DNA from: Burkholderiales bacterium
GTDB lineage: Bacteria > Pseudomonadota > Gammaproteobacteria > Burkholderiales > SG8-39
DNA length: 64,000 nucleotides
Assembly: GCA_033582675.1 (NCBI GenBank)
Contig: JAVQZY010000017.1
Span: forward strand, 26,405-90,404
Direction: 5' to 3'
Position 1 is the first letter of the stretch, and each line of letters begins with the position of its first letter. Under the pieces are notes generated by a model. It saw only the letters and a program-made list of their open reading frames with translations. It was not told where the DNA came from and did not search any database. Shown piece after piece: positions 6,582 through 32,320 of this stretch. Position numbers and translations under genes: made by a program.

Positions 6582-7712
6582 ATGGCGGACATGTTCCCGC
6601 TGATCGAGCTCGCCGGCAGCCCGTTCGATCGCGGCGCCGCCTACGGCAAAGCGGCCCGCGAGCGCATCGGCGTCTCGATCGCGAATTACCGGACGCTATC
6701 TGCCCACGGCGGTCTCGGCTGGGACGAGGCGCGGGCGCTCGCCGGCCGCTACGCGCGCCCGATCCGCGAGCTCGATCCCGCCCTCGTCGAGGAAATCGAA
6801 GGTATCGCCGCGGGAAGCGGCTACGGCCTGGCGGATATCCTCGCGCTCAACTGCCGCACCGAACTCCTGCCGCCGAGTTTTCCGGAGCCGGCCGACGAAG
6901 CATGGCTTGCGGCGGCCCGGCGTGCGGCGGACCTCGGCGAATGCACGGCGATCGCGGTCGAGCCGGATCGGAGCGCGACGGGCGGTGCGCTGCTCGCACA
7001 GAACTGGGATTGGCTGGGGACTCAACGGCAGGCGCTGGTCCTCATTCGTGCGGAGACGGGCTCCACGGCGTACCTCACGCTCACCGAGGCGGGCATGCTC
7101 GCGAAGATCGGTCTGAACGGCCACGGGCTCGGCGTATGCCTGAACATCCTGCGCTCGCGAGACGACGGGTTGCGCCCTGGGGTGCCGGTGCACGTGCTGC
7201 TTCGCAGGCTCCTTGAGTGCCGGAAGGTCGGCGAAGTCGAGGCGCTCGTCGGGCGCCTGCGCTACGCGGCCTCGTCGAACGTCCTTTGCGCCGATGCCGC
7301 GGGCGGCATCGCGAGCTTCGAGCTCTCGCCCGCCGGCGCAGGCGTCGTGCGCGCCGAAGGCGGCGCGCTCTGCCACACCAATCACTTTCTCGACCCGGCG
7401 CTCGCGGCAGGCGAAGCGGCGCCCGCCGAGAGCCTGTCGTCGCGCCCGCGCCTCGAGCGTGCGCGCGCATTCGTCGCCTCGCGGGCGACGCTCGGCCCGC
7501 GCGACCTTCAGGCACTGCTTCGCGACGAAAGCGACGGGCGGTTGTCCGTCTGCCGGCGGCCCGACCCGCAGGCGCCCTGGTATCTGCGGATCGAGTCGGT
7601 CGCCTCGGTGGTGATGGAGCTTGCGCGCGGCGCGATGCACGTCGCGCCCGACGTGCCCTCGCGCTGCGACTACCTCGAGGTCGCGTTGGAGGCGCAGATG
7701 GCGCTCGCGTAG
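6582..7712 (+). CDS. Peptidase C45 family Ntn-hydrolase/acyltransferase (isopenicillin-N acyltransferase-like)
   Basis: GSPFDRGAAYG, EEIEGIA.G, ALNCRTE, GE-CT autoproteolytic Cys, LAQNWDW, TEAG...KIGLN..GLGVCLN, HTNHF; SD GGAGGG before the ATG at 6582. Confidence 0.9.
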   Translation: MADMFPLIELAGSPFDRGAAYGKAARERIGVSIANYRTLSAHGGLGWDEARALAGRYARPIRELDPALVEEIEGIAAGSGYGLADILALNCRTELLPPSFPEPADEAWLAAARRAADLGECTAIAVEPDRSATGGALLAQNWDWLGTQRQALVLIRAETGSTAYLTLTEAGMLAKIGLNGHGLGVCLNILRSRDDGLRPGVPVHVLLRRLLECRKVGEVEALVGRLRYAASSNVLCADAAGGIASFELSPAGAGVVRAEGGALCHTNHFLDPALAAGEAAPAESLSSRPRLERARAFVASRATLGPRDLQALLRDESDGRLSVCRRPDPQAPWYLRIESVASVVMELARGAMHVAPDVPSRCDYLEVALEAQMALA

Positions 7713-7738
7713 GCGCGCCTCCCGGAGGGGGGATGTGC

Positions 7739-7930
7739 ATGGACGAGAAGGCGGAAGCGTTGCGCACGTACGCCGCGCTCGCGGGCGTCGCGATCCCGCA
7801 GGCGCGAATCGGCGCGATCGCCGAAACGCTCGCGCGGCAGCTCGCGGCCGAGCGCGCGGCGACCGGCACGCTCGAATTCGAGGTCGAACCGTCCTCCTTC
7901 CTCGCGACGCTCGCGCGAGGCGCGTCGTGA
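7739..7930 (+). CDS. 63-aa GatC/AtzG-like small amidase partner protein (not called separately in the ORF track)
   Basis: MDEKAEALRTYAALAGVAIPQARIGAIAETLARQLAAERAATGTLEFEVEPSSFLATLARGAS; SD GGAGG upstream; stop overlaps the amidase GTG (GTGA). Confidence 0.6.
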   Translation: MDEKAEALRTYAALAGVAIPQARIGAIAETLARQLAAERAATGTLEFEVEPSSFLATLARGAS

Positions 7931-9340
7931 GCGAGCTTCTGCAGGCGGGCGCGGCAGAACTTGTACGGCTGCTGCGCGCGAAAAAGGCGAGCGCCCGCGA
8001 AGTCATGCAGGCGACGCTCGCGGCGGCCGAGCGAGCGCAGGCGCGGTTCAACTGCTTCGTGCGCATCGATGCGGAGGAGGCGCTCGCGGAGGCCGACGCC
8101 GCGGACCGCAGCCTTGCGCGCGGCGCGGTCGCCGGCCCGCTTCACGGCGTGCCCATGGCGCACAAGGACATGTCTCTATCGCGAAGGCGTCGCCTCGAGC
8201 CTCGGCTCGAGGATCGGTCCCGCGCGCCCCGCCCCTACCACCGCGACGGTGCTCAAGCGACTCGATGCCGCTGGCGCGATCCAGTTCGGCGTCCTTCACA
8301 TGACCGAGTTCGCCTACGGGCCGACCGGGCACAACTATCACCTCGGCCACTGCCGAAACCCGTGGAATCCGGCGTACATCACCGGCGGCTCTTCCAGCGG
8401 CTCGGGCGCCTCGGTCGCCGCGCGCGCGAACTTCGCCGCGCTCGGTTCGGACACCGGCGGCTCGATCCGGCTGCCGGCGCATTTCTGCGGCGTGTCGGGA
8501 CTCAAACCCACCTGGGGGCGCGTCTGCGCGCGGCGCGATGCCGCTCGCGTATTCGATGGACACGGTGGGGCCGCTCGCGCGCACGGTCGAGGACTGCGCC
8601 CTTCTTTTGCATGCGATCGCGGGCGAGGATCCGCTCGATCCGACGAGCAGTCCGCTTCCGCGTCCCCGATTACGTCGGGGAGCTGGGAGCGGCCCGTCGA
8701 GGGCCTGCGCATCGGGGTTCCCACGCGCTATTTCTACGACAGCATCGACCCCGCGATCGAGCGGCCGGTGCGCGAGAGCCTCGACGTGTTCGCCTCGGTT
8801 GGCTGCCGCATCGTCGAAGTGGAGCCACCGGACCTCGAGCCGTGGAACCACGCGGGCACCGCGATCATCGCTGCCGAGGCGGCGGCGCTGCACGCGCGCT
8901 GGTTGCGCGAGCGGCCGCAGGACTATTCCGAGCAGCTGCGCGCGCGACTTGAGCTCGGCGCCTGCATCGGCGCCGTGCAATACATCAATGCGCTCCGGCT
9001 GCGCGACCGAGCGCTCAAGCAGTGGCTCGCGCAAGTGATGTCGAAGGTCGACGCGCTGCATGCGCCGGTCGTCTCGTTCGCGACGCCGACGGTCGCCGAG
9101 ACCGACGTGGGGGGCGGTGCGCGCATGACCGAAGTGCTCGCGCGCGTGACGCGGCTCGTCAGGCCGGCGAACTTCCTCGGCGTTCCGGCGCTCGCCGTCC
9201 CGTGCGGCTTTCAGCCGAACGGGCTGCCGTGCGCGTTCCAGCTGATCGGGCGCCCCTTTGCCGAGGCGCTGCTGTTGCGCCTGGGTTACGCCTACCAGCG
9301 CGAAACCGACTGGCACCGGCGCGCACCGGCGGGCGGCTGA
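7927..9340 (+). CDS. Amidase signature family enzyme (GatA/AtzE-like), frameshifted
   Basis: GPLHGVPMAHKD, RNPWN...TGGSSSGSG, GSDTGGSIRLPA..CGVSGLKPTWGRV, SMDTVGPLARTVED, GLP.AFQLIG. Shifts near 8172, 8525 and 8655-8685. Confidence 0.92.
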
Positions 9341-9483
9341 CGCGCCCGCCCCGCACCGGTCGCGAGCGAACGCCCGGCGGAGCGCGGCAGGTTGCGGATT
9401 CGGATCGCACGCCTGCGGCGCTGCGCGGCGGCGGCTGCAGAGTAAGATTCGCGCAGACATCGAGACGCCGAGGAGGGCAGTGC

Positions 9484-10596
9484 ATGGCGAAGGCGAACGC
9501 GCGGCCGATCCGCCGTATCGCGATCAGCACCGGCGGCGGCGACGCGCCCGGCCTGAACGCGGTGATCCGCGGCGCCGTGCTCACCGCGCGGCACTACGGC
9601 TGGGAATGCGTCGGCATCCGCGACAGCTACGACGGCCTGCTCGAGCCGATGCGCGGCGGTGGCCTCGTACCGCTCACGCCCGAGCGGGTCGAAGGCATCA
9701 CCTGGCTCGGCGGTACGATCCTCGGGACCACGAACGCCGGCAATCCGTTCCGTTACCCGGTGCGCCGGACCGACGGCAAGATCGTGCTGCGCGACCGCTC
9801 CGACGAGCTGATGCGCGCCTTCCGGCGCGAGGGCATCGACGCGCTCGTCGCGATCGGCGGCGACGGGTCGCTTTCGATCGCGCACGGGCTCGCGAAAAAG
9901 GGCCTGCGGGTCGTCGGCGTGCCGAAAACGATCGACAACGATCTCGCGCACACCGTCATCACCTTCGGCTTCGACACGGCGGTCTCGTTCGCCACCGAAT
10001 GCATCGAGCGGCTGCACAGCACCGCCGCCTCGCACCGGCGCGTGATCGTGGTCGAGGTGATGGGGCGCTACGCCGGCTGGATCGCGCTGAACGCCGGGGT
10101 CGCAGCCGACGCGCACGCGATCCTCATCCCCGAGATACCGTTCGACGTCGACAAGGTCGCGGCTGCGCTTCGCGCGCGCGAGGCAGCCGGGCAGAACTAC
10201 TCGATCGTCGTCGTCGCCGAAGGCGCGCGGCCGAAGGGCGGCGCGCGCGCGATCGTCGAGCAGCGGCTCGGCGGCGGCGAGCGTCTCGGCGGCATCGGCG
10301 AGCGCGTGGCGAAGGCGCTCGCGCCGCGCACCGGCAAGGAGACGCGCCACGTCGTGCTCGGACACCTTCTGCGCGGCGGCTCGCCGACGACGTTCGATCG
10401 GCTGATTTCGCTGCGCTTCGGGGCGGCGGCGGTTCGCGCCCTCGCCGAGGGGCGGCGCGGCGTCATGGTCGCGCTCGATCCGCCGAGCGTGCGCTACGTG
10501 CCGCTTTCGCGCGTCGCGCGCCGCATCCGCCGCGTGCCGGCCAACTCCGACACGGTGCGCACCGCGCGCGGCCTCGGCATCTGCTTCGGCGACTGA
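9484..10596 (+). CDS. pfkA: 6-phosphofructokinase (PfkA family, GGDG/PKTIDND type)
   Basis: TGGGDAPGLNA, GGTILGT, IGGDGS, PKTIDNDL, GFDTA, EVMGRYAGWIA, LGHLLRGG; SD AGGAGG; candidate -10 TAAGAT at 9443-9448. Confidence 0.93.
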   Translation: MAKANARPIRRIAISTGGGDAPGLNAVIRGAVLTARHYGWECVGIRDSYDGLLEPMRGGGLVPLTPERVEGITWLGGTILGTTNAGNPFRYPVRRTDGKIVLRDRSDELMRAFRREGIDALVAIGGDGSLSIAHGLAKKGLRVVGVPKTIDNDLAHTVITFGFDTAVSFATECIERLHSTAASHRRVIVVEVMGRYAGWIALNAGVAADAHAILIPEIPFDVDKVAAALRAREAAGQNYSIVVVAEGARPKGGARAIVEQRLGGGERLGGIGERVAKALAPRTGKETRHVVLGHLLRGGSPTTFDRLISLRFGAAAVRALAEGRRGVMVALDPPSVRYVPLSRVARRIRRVPANSDTVRTARGLGICFGD

Positions 10597-10607
10597 CCGG
10601 GCGCGGT

Positions 10608-13600
10608 TCAGACGAGCCGGCGCGCGCGCGCCAGCTCGGGCAGGCAGTGCGCGAGCCAGCGCGCGGTGAGCTTTTCGGCGAGCGAGTTCTGGCGCAAGCG
10701 GTCGTTGAGCGCCTTGAAGTCCACGCGGTCGAGGTCCTGGTCCTGGTCGAAGCAGGAGAAGACGACGCGCGTCTCCCCGGTCGCGGGATCGCGATGTAGC
10801 TGCAGGCACTGCGCGCAGATCTCTTTCATCATGCACTGCATCGGCGAGTTGATCGAGCCGATCGCGAGGTGCTGCGGTTTCAGGTGCGCGCGCAGCACCT
10901 CGTGGCGCGCGCGCGCGACCGCGGCCATCATTCGATCGGAGCCGATCGCGATGATGCGGTCGGCCTCCTCCAGCCGGATCGTCGGCTCGCCGAGGCGGCC
11001 TTCGGCGTAGGCGTCCATCGCCTGCACCAGGTTGCCGACGAACGCCCGGTCCTGCGGTCGGCCCGGCGCGAAACCCGGCGCCTCGTCGCAGCACCAGACG
11101 ACGACGTCGGCCGCCTGCTCGATCTCGGCCACCTTGTAGCGGTCCGCGACCCGCTTGTAGCCGGCGAAGTAGAGCACGCGGGAGCCGGCCGCGCGCAGCG
11201 CCGCGCCGATCGAAAAGAGCACCGCGTTGCCGAGCCCGCCGCCGCAGAGCACCACGGTTTCGCCGCCGGCGATGCGGGTGGGCGACCCCGTCGGTCCCAT
11301 CAGGACCACGGGCTCGCCGGGCTGAAGCATCGCGCACAGGTTGCTCGAGCCGCCCATCTCCAACGCGATCACCGACACCAGCCCGCGGTCCGGATCGACC
11401 CAGGCGCCCGTCATCGCGAGCCCTTCCATCTGCATGCGGGTACCGCAGACGAGCGGGGCGAGCGTCTCGAAGTTCTGCAGGCGAAAGAACTGCCCGGGCC
11501 GGAAGTTGCGCGCGGCGAACGGCGCGCGCACCTGCACCTCGACGATCGTCGGCGTCAGGCGCTCGACGCGCTCGACGGTGGCGAGCAGCGCCGCCGCGAG
11601 GCGCGCGAAAAACGCCTCGCGCGGCATCGGGCTTGCGGCCGCGCGCCTTGCGAGCACGCGCGAGACGAGCCGGTAGCCCTGCTTGGCCGAGGCCATTGCC
11701 TTCACCACATTGCCGAAGTAGGAGGGGTGCACGTCGCCGAAGAAGCTGACGAACCGGCCGTCGGGCTCGCGCGCAAGGAGCACGTGCGGCGCGCGCGGCT
11801 TCGCGCTCGCCGGCTCCGGGCGCACCGGGCGTCTCTTCCTCGTCGCAGGCCGCGAAATACTTTCCGTCCAGGCGAAACGGCGCGCCGTGCTCGCGCGCAA
11901 GTACGGTGTTCGGCTGTGTGCCGGCGGCGACGAACACGGTGCGCGCGGGCAGGCGCTGCTCCCGGCCGCTCGGCTGATGGCGCATCACGATAGCGCACGC
12001 GGCGCCGTAGTGATCGACTTCGATCGCGACCGGCACGAGCTGCTCGGCGAACCAGACGCCCTCCTCGAGCGCCTTGTGCACCTCCTCGTGATTGAGCGTG
12101 TAGGCCGGGCTGTCGACGAGCCGGCGCCGGTAGGCGATGGTGACGCCGCCCCAGTGCTGCAGCAGCTCGACGATGCGCGGCGCGCGGCCTTCGCGCGCCG
12201 CCTGCGCGCGCTCGGCGCGGATCGCGCGCGCGTGGGCGAGGAATTCCTCCGCGGTTTCGCGCTCGTCGTCATCCCACCCCTCGCGCACCGCCGCCTCGCC
12301 GCGGCACGGCGGCGAGCGCCTCGTAGCGCGCGAGGAACTTCTCGACCTGCACGACGTAGTAGGCGAGCGATTCGGTCGCGGTGTCGATCGCGGTGAGCCC
12401 GCCGCCCACCACCACCACCGGAAGCCGCAGCTGCATGTTGGCGATCGAGTCGGCCTTCGCCGCGCCGGTGAGCTGCAGCGCCATCAGGAAGTCAGACGCC
12501 GCGCGCACGCCGCGCGCAAGGCCGTTCGGGATGTCGAGGACCGTCGGCCGGCCGGCGCCGACGCACAGCGCGACGTGGTCGAAGCCGAGCGCTCCAGGCG
12601 TCCTCGAGCGTCAGCGTGCCGCCGAAGCGCACGCCGCCGAACATCGCGAACTGCGCGCGCCGCTCGAGCAGCAGGCGCACGATCTTCAGGAAGTTCTTGT
12701 CCCAGCGCACGGTGATGCCGTACTCGGCCACGCCGCCGAAGCCGGCCATCACGCGCGCCTCGAGCGGCTCGTGCAGCTCGCGTACGTCGCGGATCAGGCG
12801 AAACGGCACGCGGTCGCCCGGCGGCGTCGACGCCGCTCAGATCCGGGGCGAGCGGCTCGATCTTCAGGCCGTCGATCCGACGACCACGGTGTGCCCGTCG
12901 TTCATCAGATGGTGCGCGAGCGTGAAGCCGGCGGGTCCCAGGCCGACGACGAGCACCTTTTTTCCGGTTTCGGGCAGCGGCAGCGGGCGGCGCAGGTCGA
13001 GGGGGTTCCAGCGCGTGAGCAGCGAGTAGATCTCGAAGCCCCAGGGCAGCTCGAGCACGTCCTTGAGCGTCCGCGTCTCGGCCTGCGGGATGTCGACCGG
13101 CGTCTGCTTCTGGTAGATGCACGCCTTCATGCAGTCGTTGCAGATGCGATGGCCGGTCGCCGCCACCATCGGGTTGTCGACGCAGATCATCGCGAGCGCG
13201 GCGAGCGGGTGCCCCTGCGCCTTCAGCATGTGGAATTCGGAGATGCGCTCTTCCAGCGGGCAGCCGGCGAGCGGCACGCCGAACACGCTGCGGCGAAAGC
13301 CCTCGGCCGGGGGCTTTTCGCGCAGCCCCTTCGAGCACGAGTCCTTGCCCTGCTCGTGACACCAGATGCAGTAATTCGCCTGGTCGAGCGCGCCGGCGAG
13401 ATCGGTCCCCGGATCGGTGAGCGCGAAGCCCTCGCGCCGGCGCAGATGCGAAAGGCGGTGGCGCGCAAAGCCCTGTACGGTGTCGGTCTCGACCGGGACC
13501 AGACGCATCGGGTCGAGCTTCTGCGGCGCCTTGAAGAGCACGCCCGCGCCGTGGCGCGCGCGCCCGGCCGTCGGTGCGTCACCGCCCAGCAGGCGTAGCG

Positions 13601-14068
13601 CGCGGCCGCCTCGAGCGCCTCGGCGTTCGCCGACCTCGTCGGCGAGCCAGCGGCTCACCTGCTGCGCGAACTCGAGCTCGCGTGAACGGCCACGGCAGCA
13701 GGCGCTCGAGCGGCTCTGGCGAGGCGTCCTCGGGCCTGACCTTGTGCAGCGCGCGCCGCTGGACGAAATTGCGCTTCACCGACCACAGCGGCGCGAAGCG
13801 CGTGGTGCCGCGCCGCGAGCGCCTGCGCCTCGGCGACGATGCCGAAAAGGCGCGCGAGGAAATCCTCCAGGTGCGGCGCGAGCGCGAGCAGCAGCGCCGA
13901 TTCGTCCTTCGGCGCGAGCGCCTGCGGCGCCGCGCGCGCGGCGGCGAGGCGCTCGGCGAGCGCCGGCGCGGCGTCGGCGAGGAACGCGAGGAAGCGCGCG
14001 TCGAGGCGCGCCAGACCTTCGCGGCTGTAGAGCTCCTGCGGCGCGGGGGGGGAGTCGGCGGCGGTCAC
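10608..14068 (-). CDS. Large Fe-S flavoprotein: GltD/NfnB-like module fused to a C-terminal PyrK/NfnA-like FNR module (about 10 frameshifts)
   Basis: [52 protein letters not shown], then [36 protein letters not shown]. Start taken as GTG at 14068 (uncertain). Confidence 0.85.
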
Positions 14069-14157
14069 GCGCGCAGCGGCGGCGATCGTTTGGGCATCCA
14101 ACGATTATACGGGCGCGGCGCGCCGTGCTAGCATCGCGCCCTCGACACGGAGGGCGT

Positions 14158-14922
14158 ATGCAGGTGAAGAACAGCGTGTTTCTCGTCACCGGCGGCGCGT
14201 CGGGGCTCGGCGCGGCGACCGCGCGCATGGCGGCCGAAGGCGGCGCGAAAGTCGTCATCGCCGACCTGCAGAGCGAAGCGGGCGAAAAGCTCGCGCGCGA
14301 GATCGGCGGCCGCTTCGTGCGCTGCGACGTCGCGTCGGAAGCCGACGGCCAGGCGGCGGTGGACATGCGCAGTTGCGCGAATTCGGCGGCCTGCACGTGC
14401 TCGTCAACTGCGCCGGTATCGGCACTGCGGAGCGCACGATCGGCAAGGACCGGCCGCACGACCTCGCGCATTTCGTGCGCGTGATCACCGTCAACCTGAT
14501 CGGCACGTTCAACATGATCCGGCTCGCGGCGTTCGCGATGGCGAAGGGCACGCCGAACGCCGCCGGCGAGCGCGGCGTGATCGTGAACACCGCCTCGGTC
14601 GCCGCGTTCGACGGGCAGATCGGCCAGGCGGCCTACTCGGCGTCGAAGGGCGGGGTGGTCGGCATGACGCTGCCGGTCGCGCGCGACCTCGCGCGCAACG
14701 GCGATCCGCGTCTGCACCATCGCGCCCGGCATCTTCGAGACGCCGATGCTCCTCGGCATGCCGAAGGAGGTGCAGGAATCGCTCGCCAGGCAGGTGCCGT
14801 TTCCGTCGCGCCTCGGCCGACCGTCCGAGTACGCCCAGCTCGCGCTCCACATCGTCGAGAACGAGATGCTGAACGGCGAGACGATCCGGCTGGACGGCGC
14901 GATCCGCATGGCGCCGCGGTAG
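14158..14922 (+). CDS. 3-hydroxyacyl-CoA dehydrogenase type II (HSD17B10-like SDR), frameshifted
   Basis: [74 protein letters not shown]. Shifts near 14370 and 14700. Confidence 0.93.
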
Positions 14923-18929: not shown

Positions 18930-19714
18930 CTCGGCGCCGGTCGCGCGGCTCTACGGCACGCCGATCGAGACCCTGCCGCCCGACCTCTACATTCCGCCGG
19001 ACGCGCTCGAGGTGATGCTCGAGGCGTTCCAGGGGCCGCTCGATCTGCTGCTCTACCTCATCCGGCGCCAGAACATGAACATCCTCGACATCCCGATGGC
19101 GCCGCTCACGCGCCAGTACCTCGACTACGTCGAGCTGATGCGCCGGCGCAATCTGGAGCTCGCCGCCGAATACCTCGTCATGGCGGCGATCCTGATGGAG
19201 ATCAAGTCGCGCATGCTGCTGCCGCGGCCGCCGGCGACCGAGGCGGAGGAGACGGCGGACCCGCGCGCCGAACTCGTGCGCCGGCTGCTCGAGTACGAGA
19301 AGATGAAGCTCGCGGCGCGCAAGCTCGACGAGCTGCCGCAGCTCGGGCGCGACCTGTTCGCGGTCGCGGTCGCCGTCGAGCGCGAGGCGGTCGTGCGGCT
19401 GCCGCAGGTGCACGCGCGCGACCTCGCGCGAGGCCTGGCGCGCGCTGCTCGCGCGCGCGCGGCTGCGCGCGCACCACACGGTGACGCGGGAGGCGCTGTC
19501 GGTGCGCGAGTACATGAGCCGGATCCTGCGCAGCCTGCGCGTGCACCGGGTGCTCGAATTCGCGGAGCTCTTCGACCCGGCGCGCGGCGTCGCGGTGCTC
19601 GTCGTCACCTTCCTCGCGCTGCTCGAGCTCGCGCGCGAAGCGCTCGTCGAAATCACGCAATCGGGTGCGTTCGCGCCGATCTACGTGCGCCTTGCCGATG
19701 CTCAGCCCCACTGA
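18922..19714 (+). CDS. scpA: Segregation and condensation protein A (kleisin), frameshift near 19435
   Basis: [55 protein letters not shown]. Confidence 0.93.
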
Positions 19715-20296
19715 GGCAAAGCGCATCCTCGAGGCGGCGCTGCTCGCCTCGCCCGAGCCGGTTCCGCTCGCCGATCTGCGGCGGCTGTTCGACGGCCAGA
19801 TCGGCGCCGACACGATCCGCCGGCTGCTCGAGGAGCTGCGTGCGGACTGGGCCGAGCGCGCGGTCGAACTGGTTCAGCTCGCCGGCGGCTGGCGCTTCCA
19901 GACGCGGCAGGGAATTCCTGCCGTTCCTTGCGCGCCTGCACCCGGAAAAGCCGCCGCGGTACTCCCGCGCGGTGCTGGAAACGCTCGCGATCATCGCCTA
20001 CCGCCAGCCGGTGACCCGCGGCGATATCGAGGAGATCCGCGGCGTGTCGGTGTCGGCGCAGATCCTTCAGACCCTCGAGGCGCGTGGCTGGATCGACGTC
20101 GTCGGCCATCGCGACACGCCGGGACGGCCGGCGCTGTACGGCGACGACGACGCGCTTCCTGGACGACCTCGGCCTGCGTTCGCTGGAAGAACTGCCGCCG
20201 CTCGAGGAGATCGCGAGGACCCTTGAGCTCGAAGCCCCCGCGGCGCAGCCCGCCGCCGAAGAGCCGGTCGACGTCCGCCCCGTCGGCGCCGAGTAG
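19698..20296 (+). CDS. scpB: Segregation and condensation protein B, frameshifts near 19910 and 20140
   Basis: [69 protein letters not shown]. Confidence 0.93.
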
Positions 20297-27374: not shown

Positions 27375-29487
27375 TTGACACCGATCAAGAAGACGTTCAC
27401 CTACGGCCAGCACCAGGTCACGCTGGAAACCGGCGAGATCGCGCGCCAGGCGCACGGTGCGGTGCTGTGCACCATCGACGACACGGTCGTCCTCGCCACG
27501 GTGGTCGCGGCCAAACAGCCGCGCCCAGGCCAGGATTTCTTCCCGCTCACCGTCGATTACGTCGAAAAGACCTACGCCGCCGGCAAGATTCCCGGCGGGT
27601 TTTTCAAGCGCGAGGGGCGGCCCTCGGAAAAGGAGATCCTCACGAGCCGACTGATCGACCGGCCGATCCGGCCGCTCTTTCCCGACGGCTTCTACAACGA
27701 GGTGCAGGTGGTCGCGACCGTGGTGTCGCTCAACCCCGAGGTCGATTCCGACATCCCGGCGATGATCGCCTCCTCGGCGGCGCTCACCCTCTCCGGCATT
27801 CCGTTCAACGGCCCGATCGGCGCCTGCCGCGTCGGTTACATCGACGGCCAGTACGTGCTCAATCCGACCATGAGCCAACTGAAGCAGTCGCAGATGAACT
27901 TGGTCGTCGCCGGCACCGACCAAGGGGTGCTGATGGTCGAGGCGGACGCGCGCGAGCTGTCGGAAGAGGTGATGCTCGGCGGCATCGTCTTCGGTCACGA
28001 GCAGATGCAGGCGGTGATCCGCGCGATCGACGAGCTCGCGGAGGTCGCCGGCAAGCCCGCTTGGGACTGCGCAGCCGCCGCCGCGCGACGAAGCGCTCGA
28101 GCGACGCGTCGCCGAGCTCGCCGAAGCCGACCTGCGCCAGGCGTTCACGCTGCGCCAGAAGCAGGCGCGCAACGAGGCGCTCGAGGCGATCCGCCGCCGG
28201 GTGCTCGAGGCGACCGGCGCGGGCACCGAAGGCGGGCCGGCGGCGAACGTCGTGCGCGACATGATCTCGGCGCTCGAGGCGAGAATCGTGCGCAGCCAGA
28301 TCCTCGCCGGCGAGCCGCGCATCGACGGCCGCGACACGCGCACGGTGCGGCCGATCCACATCCGCGTCGGGGTGCTGCCGCGCACGCACGGCTCGGCGCT
28401 CTTCACCCGCGGCGAGACGCAGGCGCTCGTCACCGTCACGCTCGGCACCGGGCGCGACGAGCAGATCATCGACGCGCTCACCGGCGAGTACCGCGAGCGC
28501 TTCATGCTCCACTACAACATGCCGCCGTACGCGACCGGCGAGACCGGGCAGACTCGGGCCGTCCAAGCCGGCGCGAGATCGGTCACGGACGCCTCGCGAA
28601 GCGCGCGCTCGAGGCGCTGCTTCCCTCGCCCGAGGAGTTCGGCTACTCGCTGCGCGTGGTGTCGGAAATCACCGAATCGAACGGCTCGTTCCTCGATGGC
28701 CTCGGTCTGCGGCGGCAGCCTCGCGCTGATGGACGCCGGCGTGCCGATCAAGGCGCACGTCGCGGGCGTCGCGATGGGCCTTATCAAGGAAGGCAACCGC
28801 TTCGCGGTGCTCACCGACATCCTCGGCGACGAGGACCATCTCGGCGACATGGACTTCAAGGTGGCCGGCACCGAAAAAGGCATCACCGCGCTGCAGATGG
28901 ACCTCAAGATCGAGTCGATCAGCAAGGAGATCATGCGGGTGGCGCTTGCGCAGGCGCGCGAGGCGCGCTTGCACATCCTCGGCCTCATGCGCCAGGCGAT
29001 CGAGGGCTCGCGCAGCGAACTCTCCACCTACGCCCCGCGCATCATCAAGATGAAGATCAATCCGGACAAGATCCGCGACGTGATCGGCAAGGGCGGGGTG
29101 GTGATCCGCGGCATTCAGGAGGAGACCGGCACGACGATCGAAGTCGAGGACGACGGCACGATCTCGATCGCCTGCGTCTCGGCCGAAGGCGGCGAGGCGG
29201 CGCGGCGCCGGATCCAGGAACTCACCGCCGACGTCGAGGTGGGCAAGATCTACGAGGGACCGGTGCTGCGGCTGCTCGACTTCGGCGCGATCGTGCAGCT
29301 GATGCCCGGCCGCGACGGCCTGCTGCACATCTCGCAGATCAGCAACGAGCGCGTGAACTCGGTGTCCGACTACCTCAAGGAAGGTCAGATCGTGCGCGTC
29401 AAGGTGCTCGAAGCCGACGACAAGGGCCGCGTGCGGCTGTCGATGAAGGCGGTGAACGAGCAGCCGACGGCCGCCAAACAGCGCTGA
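27375..29487 (+). CDS. pnp: Polyribonucleotide nucleotidyltransferase, frameshifts near 28070, 28550 and 28690
   Basis: [61 protein letters not shown] and S1 domains; TTG start. Confidence 0.97.
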
Positions 29488-30339: not shown

Positions 30340-31194
30340 TCAACGAGGAAGCGCCTCGCGCGCGAGAACGAACACGGTGCCGGGCTCCGAGACCTCGGGC
30401 CACGCGAACGGAGTGCGCGGATAGGCGCGCTCGAGCGCGCGGCGGGCAGCGCCCGCTTCGCACACGAGTAGCCCGCGCGGCGCAAGGTGCCTGCGCGCCC
30501 CCGCGAGGATGCGGCGCACGTATTCCAGTCCGTCGCGACCCCCGTCGAGCGCAAGACGCGGCTCGTAATCGTATTCCGGCGGCAGCCGTCGCAGCGTGCG
30601 CGTCGGGACGTAGGGCGGGTTGGCGAGGATGAGGTCGTAGCGGCGCTGCCCGAGCGCGGCGAACAGATCCGAGCGGGTCAGGCGCACACGACGCGTCAGG
30701 CGATGGCGGCGCACGTTGCGCCGCGCGACCTCGAGCGCCTCGGCCGAGACGTCGGTCGCGTCGACGCGCGCCTTCGGGAACGCGAGCGCCGCGAGCACGG
30801 CGAGACAGCCCGAGCCGGTGCCGAGGTCGAGGACGCGGTCGACCGGCCGCTGCAGCCAGGGGCGCAGGTCCCCCGCGAGCAGCTCCGAAATGAAGGAGCG
30901 GGGGATGATCGCGCGGCGATCGACGTAGAAGCGCCGCCCCGCGAGCCACGCCTCGCCGAGCAAATAGGCGAGCGGGATGCGCTCGCGGATCCGGCGCGCG
31001 GCGAGCGCCCGGATCCGGCGCGCGTGCTCGGCGCCGATGCGCGCGCGCGGATCGAGCGACGCCGGCGGGACACCGGTCGCGTGCGCGACCAGCCACGCCG
31101 CCTCGTCGCGCGCGCAGGCGGTGCCGTGGCCGAAATGCAGCCGCGCGGCGCGAAAGCGCCGTGCGAGCGCCGCGACCATGTCACCCGCAGTCAC
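30340..31194 (-). CDS. prmB: 50S ribosomal protein L3 N5-glutamine methyltransferase
   Basis: [44 protein letters not shown]; follows dapE. Confidence 0.93.
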
Positions 31195-32320
31195 GCGAGC
31201 AGCGCGCGCAGCACGTCGTAGTAGATGCGCGCGCGAGCTGCTCGAGCGCCCGCAGCTCGACGTGCTCGTCGAGCTTGTGGATGCTCGCGTTGACCGGTCC
31301 CAACTCGACGATCTGCGGGCAGATGTCGACGATGAACCGACCGTCTGAAGTGCCGCCGCCGGTCGACGCCTGCGGCTCGACCCCGGCGTGCGCCGCCACC
31401 GCGCGGCGCACCGCCTCGAGCAGTTCGCCGCGCCCCGAGAGAACGGCCGGCCGCCGAGCGTCCAGTCGATCGCATAATCGAGGCCGTGCCGACGCAGGAT
31501 CGCCTCGAAGCGTTCGCGCAACGATGCTTCGGTGCTCGCGGTCGAGAACCGGAAATTCGCAAGCAGCGTCACGCTGCCCGGCACGACGTTCTCCGCGCCG
31601 GTGCCGGCGGCGAGGTTCGAGACCTGGAAACTGGTCGGCGGGAACGCGTCGTTGCCCTCGTCCCAGCGCGTCGCCACGATCTCGGCGAGCGCCGGCGCGC
31701 AGCAGGTGGATCGGATTGCGCACCTGCTCGGGGTAGGCCACGTGGCCCTGCACACCGTGGACCGTCAGCCTCAGCGAGAGCGAGCCGCGCCGTCCGATGC
31801 GCACGGTGTCGCCCAGGACGCGCGCCGAGGACGGCTCGCCGACGATGCACCAGTCGAGCCGTTCGCCGCGCGCCTTGAGCCGCTCAACCACGCGCACCGT
31901 CCCGTCGACCGCCGGGCCCTCCTCGTCGGAGGTGAGCAGCAGCGCGATCGAGCCCCGGTGGCGCGGATGTTCGCGCACGAACGCCTCGACCGCGACGACG
32001 AACGCCGCGATCGAGGATTTCATGTCCGCCGCGCCCCGCCCGTAGAGGCGCCCGTCGCGCACGACGGGCACGAACGGATCGCTCGCCCATCGCTCGATCG
32101 GGCCCGGCGGCACGACGTCGGTGTGGCCGGCGAAGCAGAACACCGGCGCTGCCTCGCCGCGGCGCAGCCAGAGGTTCGCGACCGCGCCGCAGGGCATCGG
32201 CTCGGCGCGGAAACCGGCGCGCGCGAGCCGCTCGGCGACGAGCGCCTGACAGCCGGCGTCCTGCGGCGTCACCGACGGGCGCGCGATCAGCGCCTTCGCG
32301 AGCTCGAGCGGGCTGTCCAG
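31191..32320 (-). CDS. dapE: Succinyl-diaminopimelate desuccinylase, frameshifted; apparent CTG start
   Basis: [66 protein letters not shown]. Confidence 0.94.

Follow-up and report, generated by a model that had tools for sequence, protein, structure and literature searches.

The bifurcating transhydrogenase NfnAB (NfnI), known from Pyrococcus furiosus (5JCA/5JFC) and Thermotoga maritima (4YLF), is built from a GltD-like large subunit and a PyrK-like small subunit. Here we describe a gene on the minus strand (10608..14068) of a 64,000-nucleotide stretch of DNA, hereafter the window, from a Burkholderiales bacterium (assembly GCA_033582675.1, contig JAVQZY010000017.1, positions 26,405 to 90,404; genome G000, 74% complete). 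Read across nine frameshifts, it encodes a single-chain flavo-iron-sulfur protein of about 1,150 amino acids (aa) in which a GltD/NfnB-like and a PyrK/NfnA-like module are fused, and which is a member of the catalogued RP005/PRK06567-like family. We give an even chance to the reading that this fusion protein is an NADPH:ferredoxin reductase with a 7Fe ferredoxin of the FdxA type as its electron acceptor. The fusion protein and NfnI have in common both subunit folds, two [4Fe-4S] clusters with one Glu ligand, an equivalent of Arg201, the YRR NADP motif, a ferredoxin-NADP reductase (FNR) module with a [2Fe-2S] cluster and a C-terminal helix. Unlike NfnI, it is one chain with the large module first, carries an extra 195-aa N-terminal domain and three insertions, has an all-Cys [2Fe-2S] site and CxxCxxxC in place of CPQExQCxxxC, lacks an Arg333 equivalent in this lineage, and has altered FAD and NAD motifs in the small module. 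Identity to NfnI is 21-28%, and the hosts of the RP005 family are mostly aerobic.

Large-first Nfn fusions are already in print, although the RP005 family is separate from them. Passages of Liang et al. (2019, PMC6405883) describe the uncharacterised Pattern C Nfn as a large-first fusion about 200 aa longer, and members of the RP005 family could be listed in Table S1 of the same paper. Pattern C proteins (PRK12779/NF009415) share with the fusion protein the large-first order in one chain and an extension of about 200 aa at the N-terminus. On the other hand, they are only 22-28% identical to the RP005 family, fall on a separate long branch, and keep the Asp ligand (DATGMCGAC) and the Arg333 equivalent (PVRVEE), neither of which the fusion protein keeps. 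Against NF009415 the fusion protein scores 79 bits (cut-off 1,519), compared with 1,652 for a true Pattern C member, the one that was scanned out of five fetched proteins of this architecture. In these five (L173-L177, family f61) the first cluster motif is CDDRPC...C...GGCPV, replacing CxxCxxxxCxxxCP.

The NfnII/Xfn enzyme of P. furiosus (5VJ7) and Fnor enzymes of the Cac_0764 type also have an Nfn-like large subunit, and they show NADPH:ferredoxin activity without NAD+ coupling. As described in parts of PMC12221290, the Fnor enzymes keep Arg201 and the Glu ligand and lack Arg333, just as the fusion protein does. However, Xfn is a two-subunit archaeal enzyme, whereas the fusion protein is a single chain, and Fnors have no small module, whereas the RP005 family keeps the [2Fe-2S] module in every full-length member examined. 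Folds are further shared with GltD, the N-terminal half of dihydropyrimidine dehydrogenase (DPD) and PyrK, the last also having an all-Cys [2Fe-2S] site. At the Arg201 motif, where the fusion protein has R451, GltD sequences carry Lys or do not match. Unlike GltD and PyrK, the fusion protein has no gltB or class 1B pyrD partner in the window, and the genome holds a separate gltD on contig C18, beside a gltB-like gene. Scores against TIGR01317 and TIGR01318 are 50 and 42 bits (cut-offs 448 and 483).

The fusion is visible without stitching frames together, because the module junction sits in a single open frame (11832-10608) that runs from the last part of the large module through all of the small module; no stop separates the two. 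The nearest solved structures are the NfnI subunits. A model of the orthologue in the same-genus genome G001 (L001, 1,148 aa, which supplies residue numbering here; 41-row alignment) has a pLDDT of 91.4 and a pTM of 0.91, the latter indicating only that the rigid arrangement of the modules is predicted with confidence. Foldseek searches with this model place the NfnI and Xfn large subunits at the top (TM-score 0.80) and the NfnI small subunit fifth (TM-score 0.89 by target), while VIA ranks the NfnI large subunit first (Z 23.6; root-mean-square deviation 2.1 Å over 431 aligned residues), followed by GltD (21.4) and DPD (20.1). Both modules are thus predicted to fold like their NfnI counterparts. 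The preliminary description of this DNA, which had proposed one protein of about 1150 aa in about 10 frame fragments with the large module first, was borne out on these points, and every motif that it quoted is present in the frameshift-aware translation.

The large module begins with a Fer4_20-like domain for two [4Fe-4S] clusters (13028..13448, minus strand), whose ligands, assigned by alignment, are C231, C234, C242, C267, C307, C310, C314 and E328 (codons at 13370, 13361, 13337, 13262, 13142, 13133, 13121 and 13079). The GltD/NfnB-type FAD and NADP(H) domains follow on the same strand (11640..12968), with the motifs GLGPAG (12944) and GGGLTAID (12406), the phosphate-binding YRR motif (12132), and insertions of 45 and 70 aa that are absent from Nfn. 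In alignments to P. furiosus NfnI, E328 corresponds to Glu126 and R451 (codon 12707) to Arg201. The loop at the Arg333 position reads PAYTLNHEE (12102-12091), with Y652 or N655 aligned to Arg333 and no Arg.

The small module consists of an FNR-type FAD barrel (11265..11582; PGQF at 11495), an NAD-binding Rossmann domain (10857..11264) and an all-cysteine [2Fe-2S] domain with an NfnA-like C-terminal helix (10665..10856), all on the minus strand. Within the barrel R858 is invariant, and the ERxPxT strand of NfnA reads EGLAMT, so that the Arg (Gly at 11423) and the Pro are lost and the Thr is kept. The Rossmann domain keeps GGGLGN in this lineage, a motif that is degenerate in many relatives. The [2Fe-2S] ligands C1074, C1080, C1083 and C1101 (codons at 10835, 10817, 10808 and 10754) lie in the motif [12 protein letters not shown]...C, instead of the Asp-Cys3 motif DGTGMCGxC. 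FAD_binding_6, NAD_binding_1 and DHODB_Fe-S_bind gave no Pfam match on the small module at E-values up to 1; the module was assigned from NCBIfam, PDB-sequence, profile-profile and fold matches.

The all-helical N-terminal domain of about 195 aa (13478..14068, minus strand), which contains four of the nine frameshifts, had been taken as unknown; it is in fact already catalogued as Pfam PF27156, RP005_N. It is the least conserved large part of the protein (0/195 columns at 95%). Foldseek found no match for its fold at E 0.001, and its best VIA match (Z 6.0 over 63 residues) falls inside the background for helical bundles.

With RP005_N, GltD-like and PyrK-like modules all in one chain, the protein has the full composition of the RP005 family. 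Relatives at 75-86% identity carry PF27156 and PF07992, and Atlas clusters were labelled RP005_N with a top score of 0.89, a lead-level score. We take the name RP005 to be a Rickettsia locus tag. NF005128/PRK06567 is the best NCBIfam match of the two closest intact relatives (754 and 759 bits; next match 108 bits), and its domain order and RP005_N domain are those of the fusion protein, which exceeds the model in length by about 120 aa. Neither these scores nor those of four other members (508-759 bits) reach the curated cut-off of 1,072 bits, so that the fusion protein counts as a homologue outside the narrow NF005128 equivalog. The PRK06567 family name is an automatic label behind which we found no tested function, and the glutamate synthase or polyprenylphenol hydroxylase function that it implies found no support.

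The family is widespread, as had been supposed. With the last open frame as query at least 7,999 longer relatives were found, of which the best 120 are 75-86% identical and in most cases 1,110-1,180 aa long. In an even draw of the class 93 of 400 genomes carry the family, including G000 and one unpublished genome, and in a draw of the phylum (301 genomes) strong matches, G000 aside, numbered 29 (34 at E 1e-8, four of them weak). The best 80 of 862 named loci with a family gene come from Burkholderiales, Nitrosomonadaceae, Alphaproteobacteria, Acidobacteriota and Planctomycetota. The gene is kept in genomes down to 1.0-1.2 Mb, and PMC3641634, in the portion that treats it, places the family in nearly all Rickettsiales. 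Two copies occur in some genomes (G030, G367, G479, G594, G654 and G668). In keeping with the earlier remark that no characterised member was known, a literature search outside subscription journals found no biochemical study, yielding genome-level mentions alone (PMC3641634, PMC4251998 and PMC5481527).

Conservation was followed in 223 sequences, a set biased towards close relatives, and in 40 more diverse class-level members. The seven Cys ligands, E328, R451, Y642, R643 and the four [2Fe-2S] Cys are present in 223/223 sequences; at class level the large-module residues are kept in 40/40 and the [2Fe-2S] ligands in all 39 full-length rows, one further row being truncated. The retained Glu and Arg and the all-Cys [2Fe-2S] site that the preliminary description had pointed to are kept across both sets, and all cluster ligands survive correction of the frame. 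Among 55 members under 70% identity, columns conserved at 95% number 42/141 in the Fe-S domain, 60/198 in the FAD/NADP domains, 8/106 in the FNR barrel and 12/64 in the [2Fe-2S] domain, compared with 0/136 in the NAD domain, and GGGLGN is kept in 23 of the 55, the lineage of the window included. Conservation in the family thus extends to the [2Fe-2S] cluster and to the C-terminal helix of NfnA type, and not to the NAD site. All of the fetched proteins of Nfn type (seven) and PyrK type (two) keep a GG(V/L)G motif. In a quick large-module tree (25 rows, insertions removed, built without PreT and AegA) the RP005 family forms its own long branch, and its sister among Nfn, Pattern C and GltD is not resolved, with long branches meeting.

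On the favoured reading, NADPH would reduce the FAD of the large module, from which electrons would pass through the predicted Glu-ligated and then the distal [4Fe-4S] cluster to FdxA; the reduced ferredoxin could then serve sulfite reductase and other Fe-S enzymes. As in NfnAB, the C-terminal module would dock with its [2Fe-2S] cluster at the large-module flavin, and this invariant module is probably a second electron exit. Since the family seems independent of NAD+ turnover in its C-terminal module, its job would be the supply of reduced ferredoxin and not NADH/NADPH transhydrogenation. In line with this, all five genomes of the genus that were searched already have PntAB.

Gene neighbourhoods point to the same partner. 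Across the best 80 named loci and 40 class-level loci, many of them short so that counts are floors, fdxA (NF045490, 7Fe ferredoxin) occurs in 9/80, in seven directly upstream on the same strand, and in 7/40, or 16/120 overall, where chance would give about 1% per locus. It also adjoins the family gene on plasmid pTcM1 of Acidithiobacillus caldus, where that gene stands beside a cluster of a fumarate-reductase-like flavoprotein, a 4Fe-4S dicluster protein, a HEAT-repeat protein, fdxA and an ABC transporter (L179, pTcM1 7143-14035). The dicluster protein and fdxA recur at two further loci (L075:425-1976 and L244:838-2372). Named loci also have pntAB (4/80) and, in 6-7/80, the sulfur genes cysH, cysD and cysN together with sulfite reductase, and class-level neighbours include Grx4 (6/40), rhodanese (5/40) and nadA (3/40). 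At six loci (L227, L232, L238, L241, L246 and L247) the family gene accompanies a Grx4 monothiol glutaredoxin gene, in five of them with fdxA and often with rhodanese or nadA; in these Grx4-linked members the NAD motif has decayed, and most of them lack a Thr/Ser at the flavin position of the small module. In 7/80 loci (L065:5694-5900 and six more from close relatives) the family gene has nearby a conserved open reading frame (ORF) of about 60 aa, for which Pfam gave no match. In G000 a stand-alone flavodoxin (L183, G000:C2:86992-90459) is a possible further acceptor of low-potential electrons; its gene is flanked by what are presumably a BoxC-like crotonase and an aromatic CoA ligase.

Co-occurrence with other ferredoxin reductases adds to this picture. 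We sampled the class at one genome per family (40 of 92 positives and 40 negatives, the 0.4-Mb genome and the unpublished genome being left out), using single queries that may miss divergent FNRs. Fpr was found in 1/40 family-positive and 16/40 negative genomes (11/40 negatives at matches better than 1e-30), and none of Fpr, TrxR-type FNR and RnfC in 23/40 positives compared with 7/40 negatives. In a first sample of 80 genomes, an ordinary FNR was found in 1/10 positives and 21/21 negatives of the same class outside the genus.

Several observations weigh against this reading. There is no fdxA within 104 of the 120 loci, and in the window neither fdxA nor a sulfur gene neighbours the family gene. 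Kin are not independent, so the p-values for co-occurrence overstate the significance; TrxR-type FNR (3/40 positives, 5/40 negatives) shows no significant difference, nor does RnfC (15/40 and 24/40, p 0.07). The genus of the window carries an ordinary Fpr as well (10/10 tested and G000), other classes outside family f54 have a TrxR-type FNR in 9/9 positives, and within f54 no FNR of either type turned up among 14 positives and 16 negatives. Because Fpr occurs in the genus and TrxR-type FNR in other classes, the RP005 protein is not a simple FNR substitute everywhere. Furthermore, according to passages of PMC6405883, NfnA likewise shows its lowest conservation at the NAD sites, which somewhat weakens the family-wide NAD-site argument, and the lineage of the window keeps GGGLGN, T882, G901/S903 and D990, so NAD(H) use is possible there. 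A simple replacement of Fpr is ruled out in the source organism, where Fpr is present.

The preliminary description had gone further, proposing a self-contained Nfn-like bifurcating enzyme retaining the Glu and the Arg near the flavin. The fusion, the ligands and the Arg201 equivalent stand; the missing Arg333 and Asp ligand and the family-wide lack of conservation in the NAD domain speak against the rest. A true Nfn-type transhydrogenase would catalyse 2 NADPH + NAD+ + 2 oxidised ferredoxin <-> 2 NADP+ + NADH + 2 reduced ferredoxin. Such an activity would fit the same cofactor set predicted here, the top structural matches of the model to both NfnI subunits, the NfnA-like C-terminal helix (D1112, R1119) and the invariant Glu ligand and Arg201 equivalent, where fetched GltD proteins have Lys (five rows with the motif). 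However, passages of PMC12221290 describe Glu126 and Arg201 as kept in bifurcating NfnB and non-bifurcating Fnor alike, so neither is evidence for bifurcation. The same passages name Arg333 as the residue that separates NfnB from Fnor, and contrast the Asp ligand of NfnA with the four Cys of PyrK; Arg333 is presented as a newly identified determinant in a section of PMC12921514. No Arg lies between P650 and E657 in the fusion protein or in at least 212 of its 223 close relatives, and its [2Fe-2S] site is all-Cys and not Asp-Cys3. The Arg of ERxPxT and the GxGxxP and GP prolines are replaced, and the NAD domain is unconstrained family-wide, even though GGGLGN is intact in this lineage.

In favour of bifurcation, RnfC gave no match in 5/5 genomes of the genus, so that no other low-potential route was found. 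On the other hand, the hosts mostly respire oxygen, and G000 has two heme-copper oxidases and PntAB. The same genome also carries Fpr, two FdxA, the separate gltD and a sulfite reductase, and gave no RnfC match. Taken together, we regard Nfn-type bifurcation as unlikely in the window's lineage, although nine class-level members (L217, L219, L221, L222, L223, L240, L245, L251 and L254) keep both a loop Arg (PAYRQNHEE or close) and GGGLGN and are better candidates for it. An Arg at 653 or 654 occurs in at most 11/223 sequences of the window-lineage set, compared with 35/39 full-length class-level members, where it may or may not fill the Arg333 site.

Were Nfn-type activity real in the RP005 family, it would be a surprise, given the rarity of Nfn in aerobes: one aerobe among 397 genomes has it, according to the relevant part of Poudel et al. 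(2018, PMC6085437), in which bifurcating enzymes are nearly absent from aerobes. With a second exit and another acceptor, the protein may instead be a bifurcating 'Xfn'-like enzyme. A broader version of this idea, possible but doubtful in our view, is that the RP005 family is a widespread bifurcating enzyme of oxygen-respiring bacteria: an NADPH pair would be split at the large flavin, one electron going to the very low-potential 7Fe FdxA and the other to the all-Cys [2Fe-2S] cluster, and from there to NAD+ in some lineages or to another acceptor in lineages with a decayed NAD site; the enzyme would take the place of Fpr or Rnf in roughly a quarter of the sampled class genomes. Either way, the occurrence of the Nfn cofactor set in 93/400 genomes of a largely aerobic class would mean that a third kind of ferredoxin-NADP reductase has been overlooked or that bifurcation has an aerobic branch. 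Natural variation within the family (loop Arg present or absent, NAD motif present or absent, all-Cys [2Fe-2S]) opens the proposed determinants of bifurcation to direct tests and makes the family a good target for biochemistry. The G000 copy itself is an ordinary family member from a noisy assembly.

The protein could also serve as an input unit for electrons, docking directly and without free ferredoxin on a partner enzyme whose gene lies elsewhere, as GltD does on GltB and PyrK on PyrD; examples would be a sulfite reductase lacking CysJ or a molybdenum hydroxylase. The GltD and DPD folds are near Nfn in the VIA comparison (Z 21.4 and 20.1 against 23.6), the extra helical domains could serve as a docking surface, and the neighbours include sulfite reductase with cysH, cysD and cysN (6-7/80 loci), Mo-hydroxylase subunits (5-6/80) and dihydroorotate dehydrogenase (5/80). 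Moreover, G000 has sulfite reductase, and its 74% complete genome gave no full CysJ match. We nevertheless consider such a unit improbable, as no single partner is constant and ferredoxin is the commonest redox neighbour; a gltD of its own is present in G000, next to a gltB-like gene, and Ehrlichia chaffeensis has the RP005 family but no glutamate synthase (GOGAT), as stated in a passage of PMC4251998.

The nine frameshifts require an explanation of their own. A frameshift-aware alignment to the intact reference P0001 (1,161 aa, identical to the gene of G001) gives 1,000 identical residues of 1,152 aligned (87%), with no in-frame stop and frameshifts near 13798, 13680, 13631, 13572, 12877, 12819, 12590, 12301 and 11832, that is, ten fragments of what would be one ORF over the whole gene. 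They could be real, making the gene in G000 a recent pseudogene redundant with the Fpr present there. Their density is about three times the background, nine in 3.4 kb where about 2.8 are expected at 0.83 per kb (Poisson p 0.003). However, no in-frame stop accompanies them, all 188/188 columns conserved at 99% in the 223 relatives are intact, and the ratio of nonsynonymous to synonymous substitution against the G001 orthologue is 0.15. Frameshifts also affect 21 of 46 G001 ORFs with a G000 orthologue, a control set that includes the fusion gene itself and two ORFs that look like antisense frames; none of the 46 has an in-frame stop, and some are more densely shifted (four in 294 aa). Among the shifted ORFs are genes that we take to be era, pnp and dapE, and rpoB and cytochrome oxidase subunit I are likewise split in G000. 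In same-genus genomes a full-length open frame is present in 17/24 and interrupted at contig ends in five more; no match was found in the other two, which are 63-65% complete. These comparisons indicate that the frameshifts are likely assembly errors. Decay to a pseudogene is very improbable, and we are highly confident that the gene is intact in the source organism. The G000 copy itself adds little, being error-laden while intact orthologues are abundant. Single-base indels are common across the G000 assembly (about 0.8-0.9 per kb of coding sequence), and therefore its split genes are likely errors; within the window, which is collinear with G001 over most of its length, affected stretches include 14158-14916, 19691-20291, 27762-29484 and 31194-32023.

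The gene ends with a stop codon at 10608-10610 and more likely starts at a GTG (14066-14068), which aligns with the ATG of the G001 orthologue, than at the TTG (14099-14101) first proposed as the start. The TTG lies 2 nt after a TATAAT hexamer (14104..14109, minus strand), a possible -10 box that is common to G001 and sits in a short gap before a divergent short-chain dehydrogenase gene; a promoter scan found no -35 element or full sigma-70 site upstream. As noted before, neither gltB nor pyrD is adjacent to the gene in the window. Its neighbours there, the divergent short-chain dehydrogenase gene and a convergent phosphofructokinase-family gene, are uninformative and offer no local operon clue. 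The stops of the fusion gene and the phosphofructokinase-family gene are 12 nt apart (10596-10608). In G001 (L024:8800-13557) about 4.7 kb with ABC-transporter-like genes lies between the same two genes, one of these having a homologue on contig C5 of G000.

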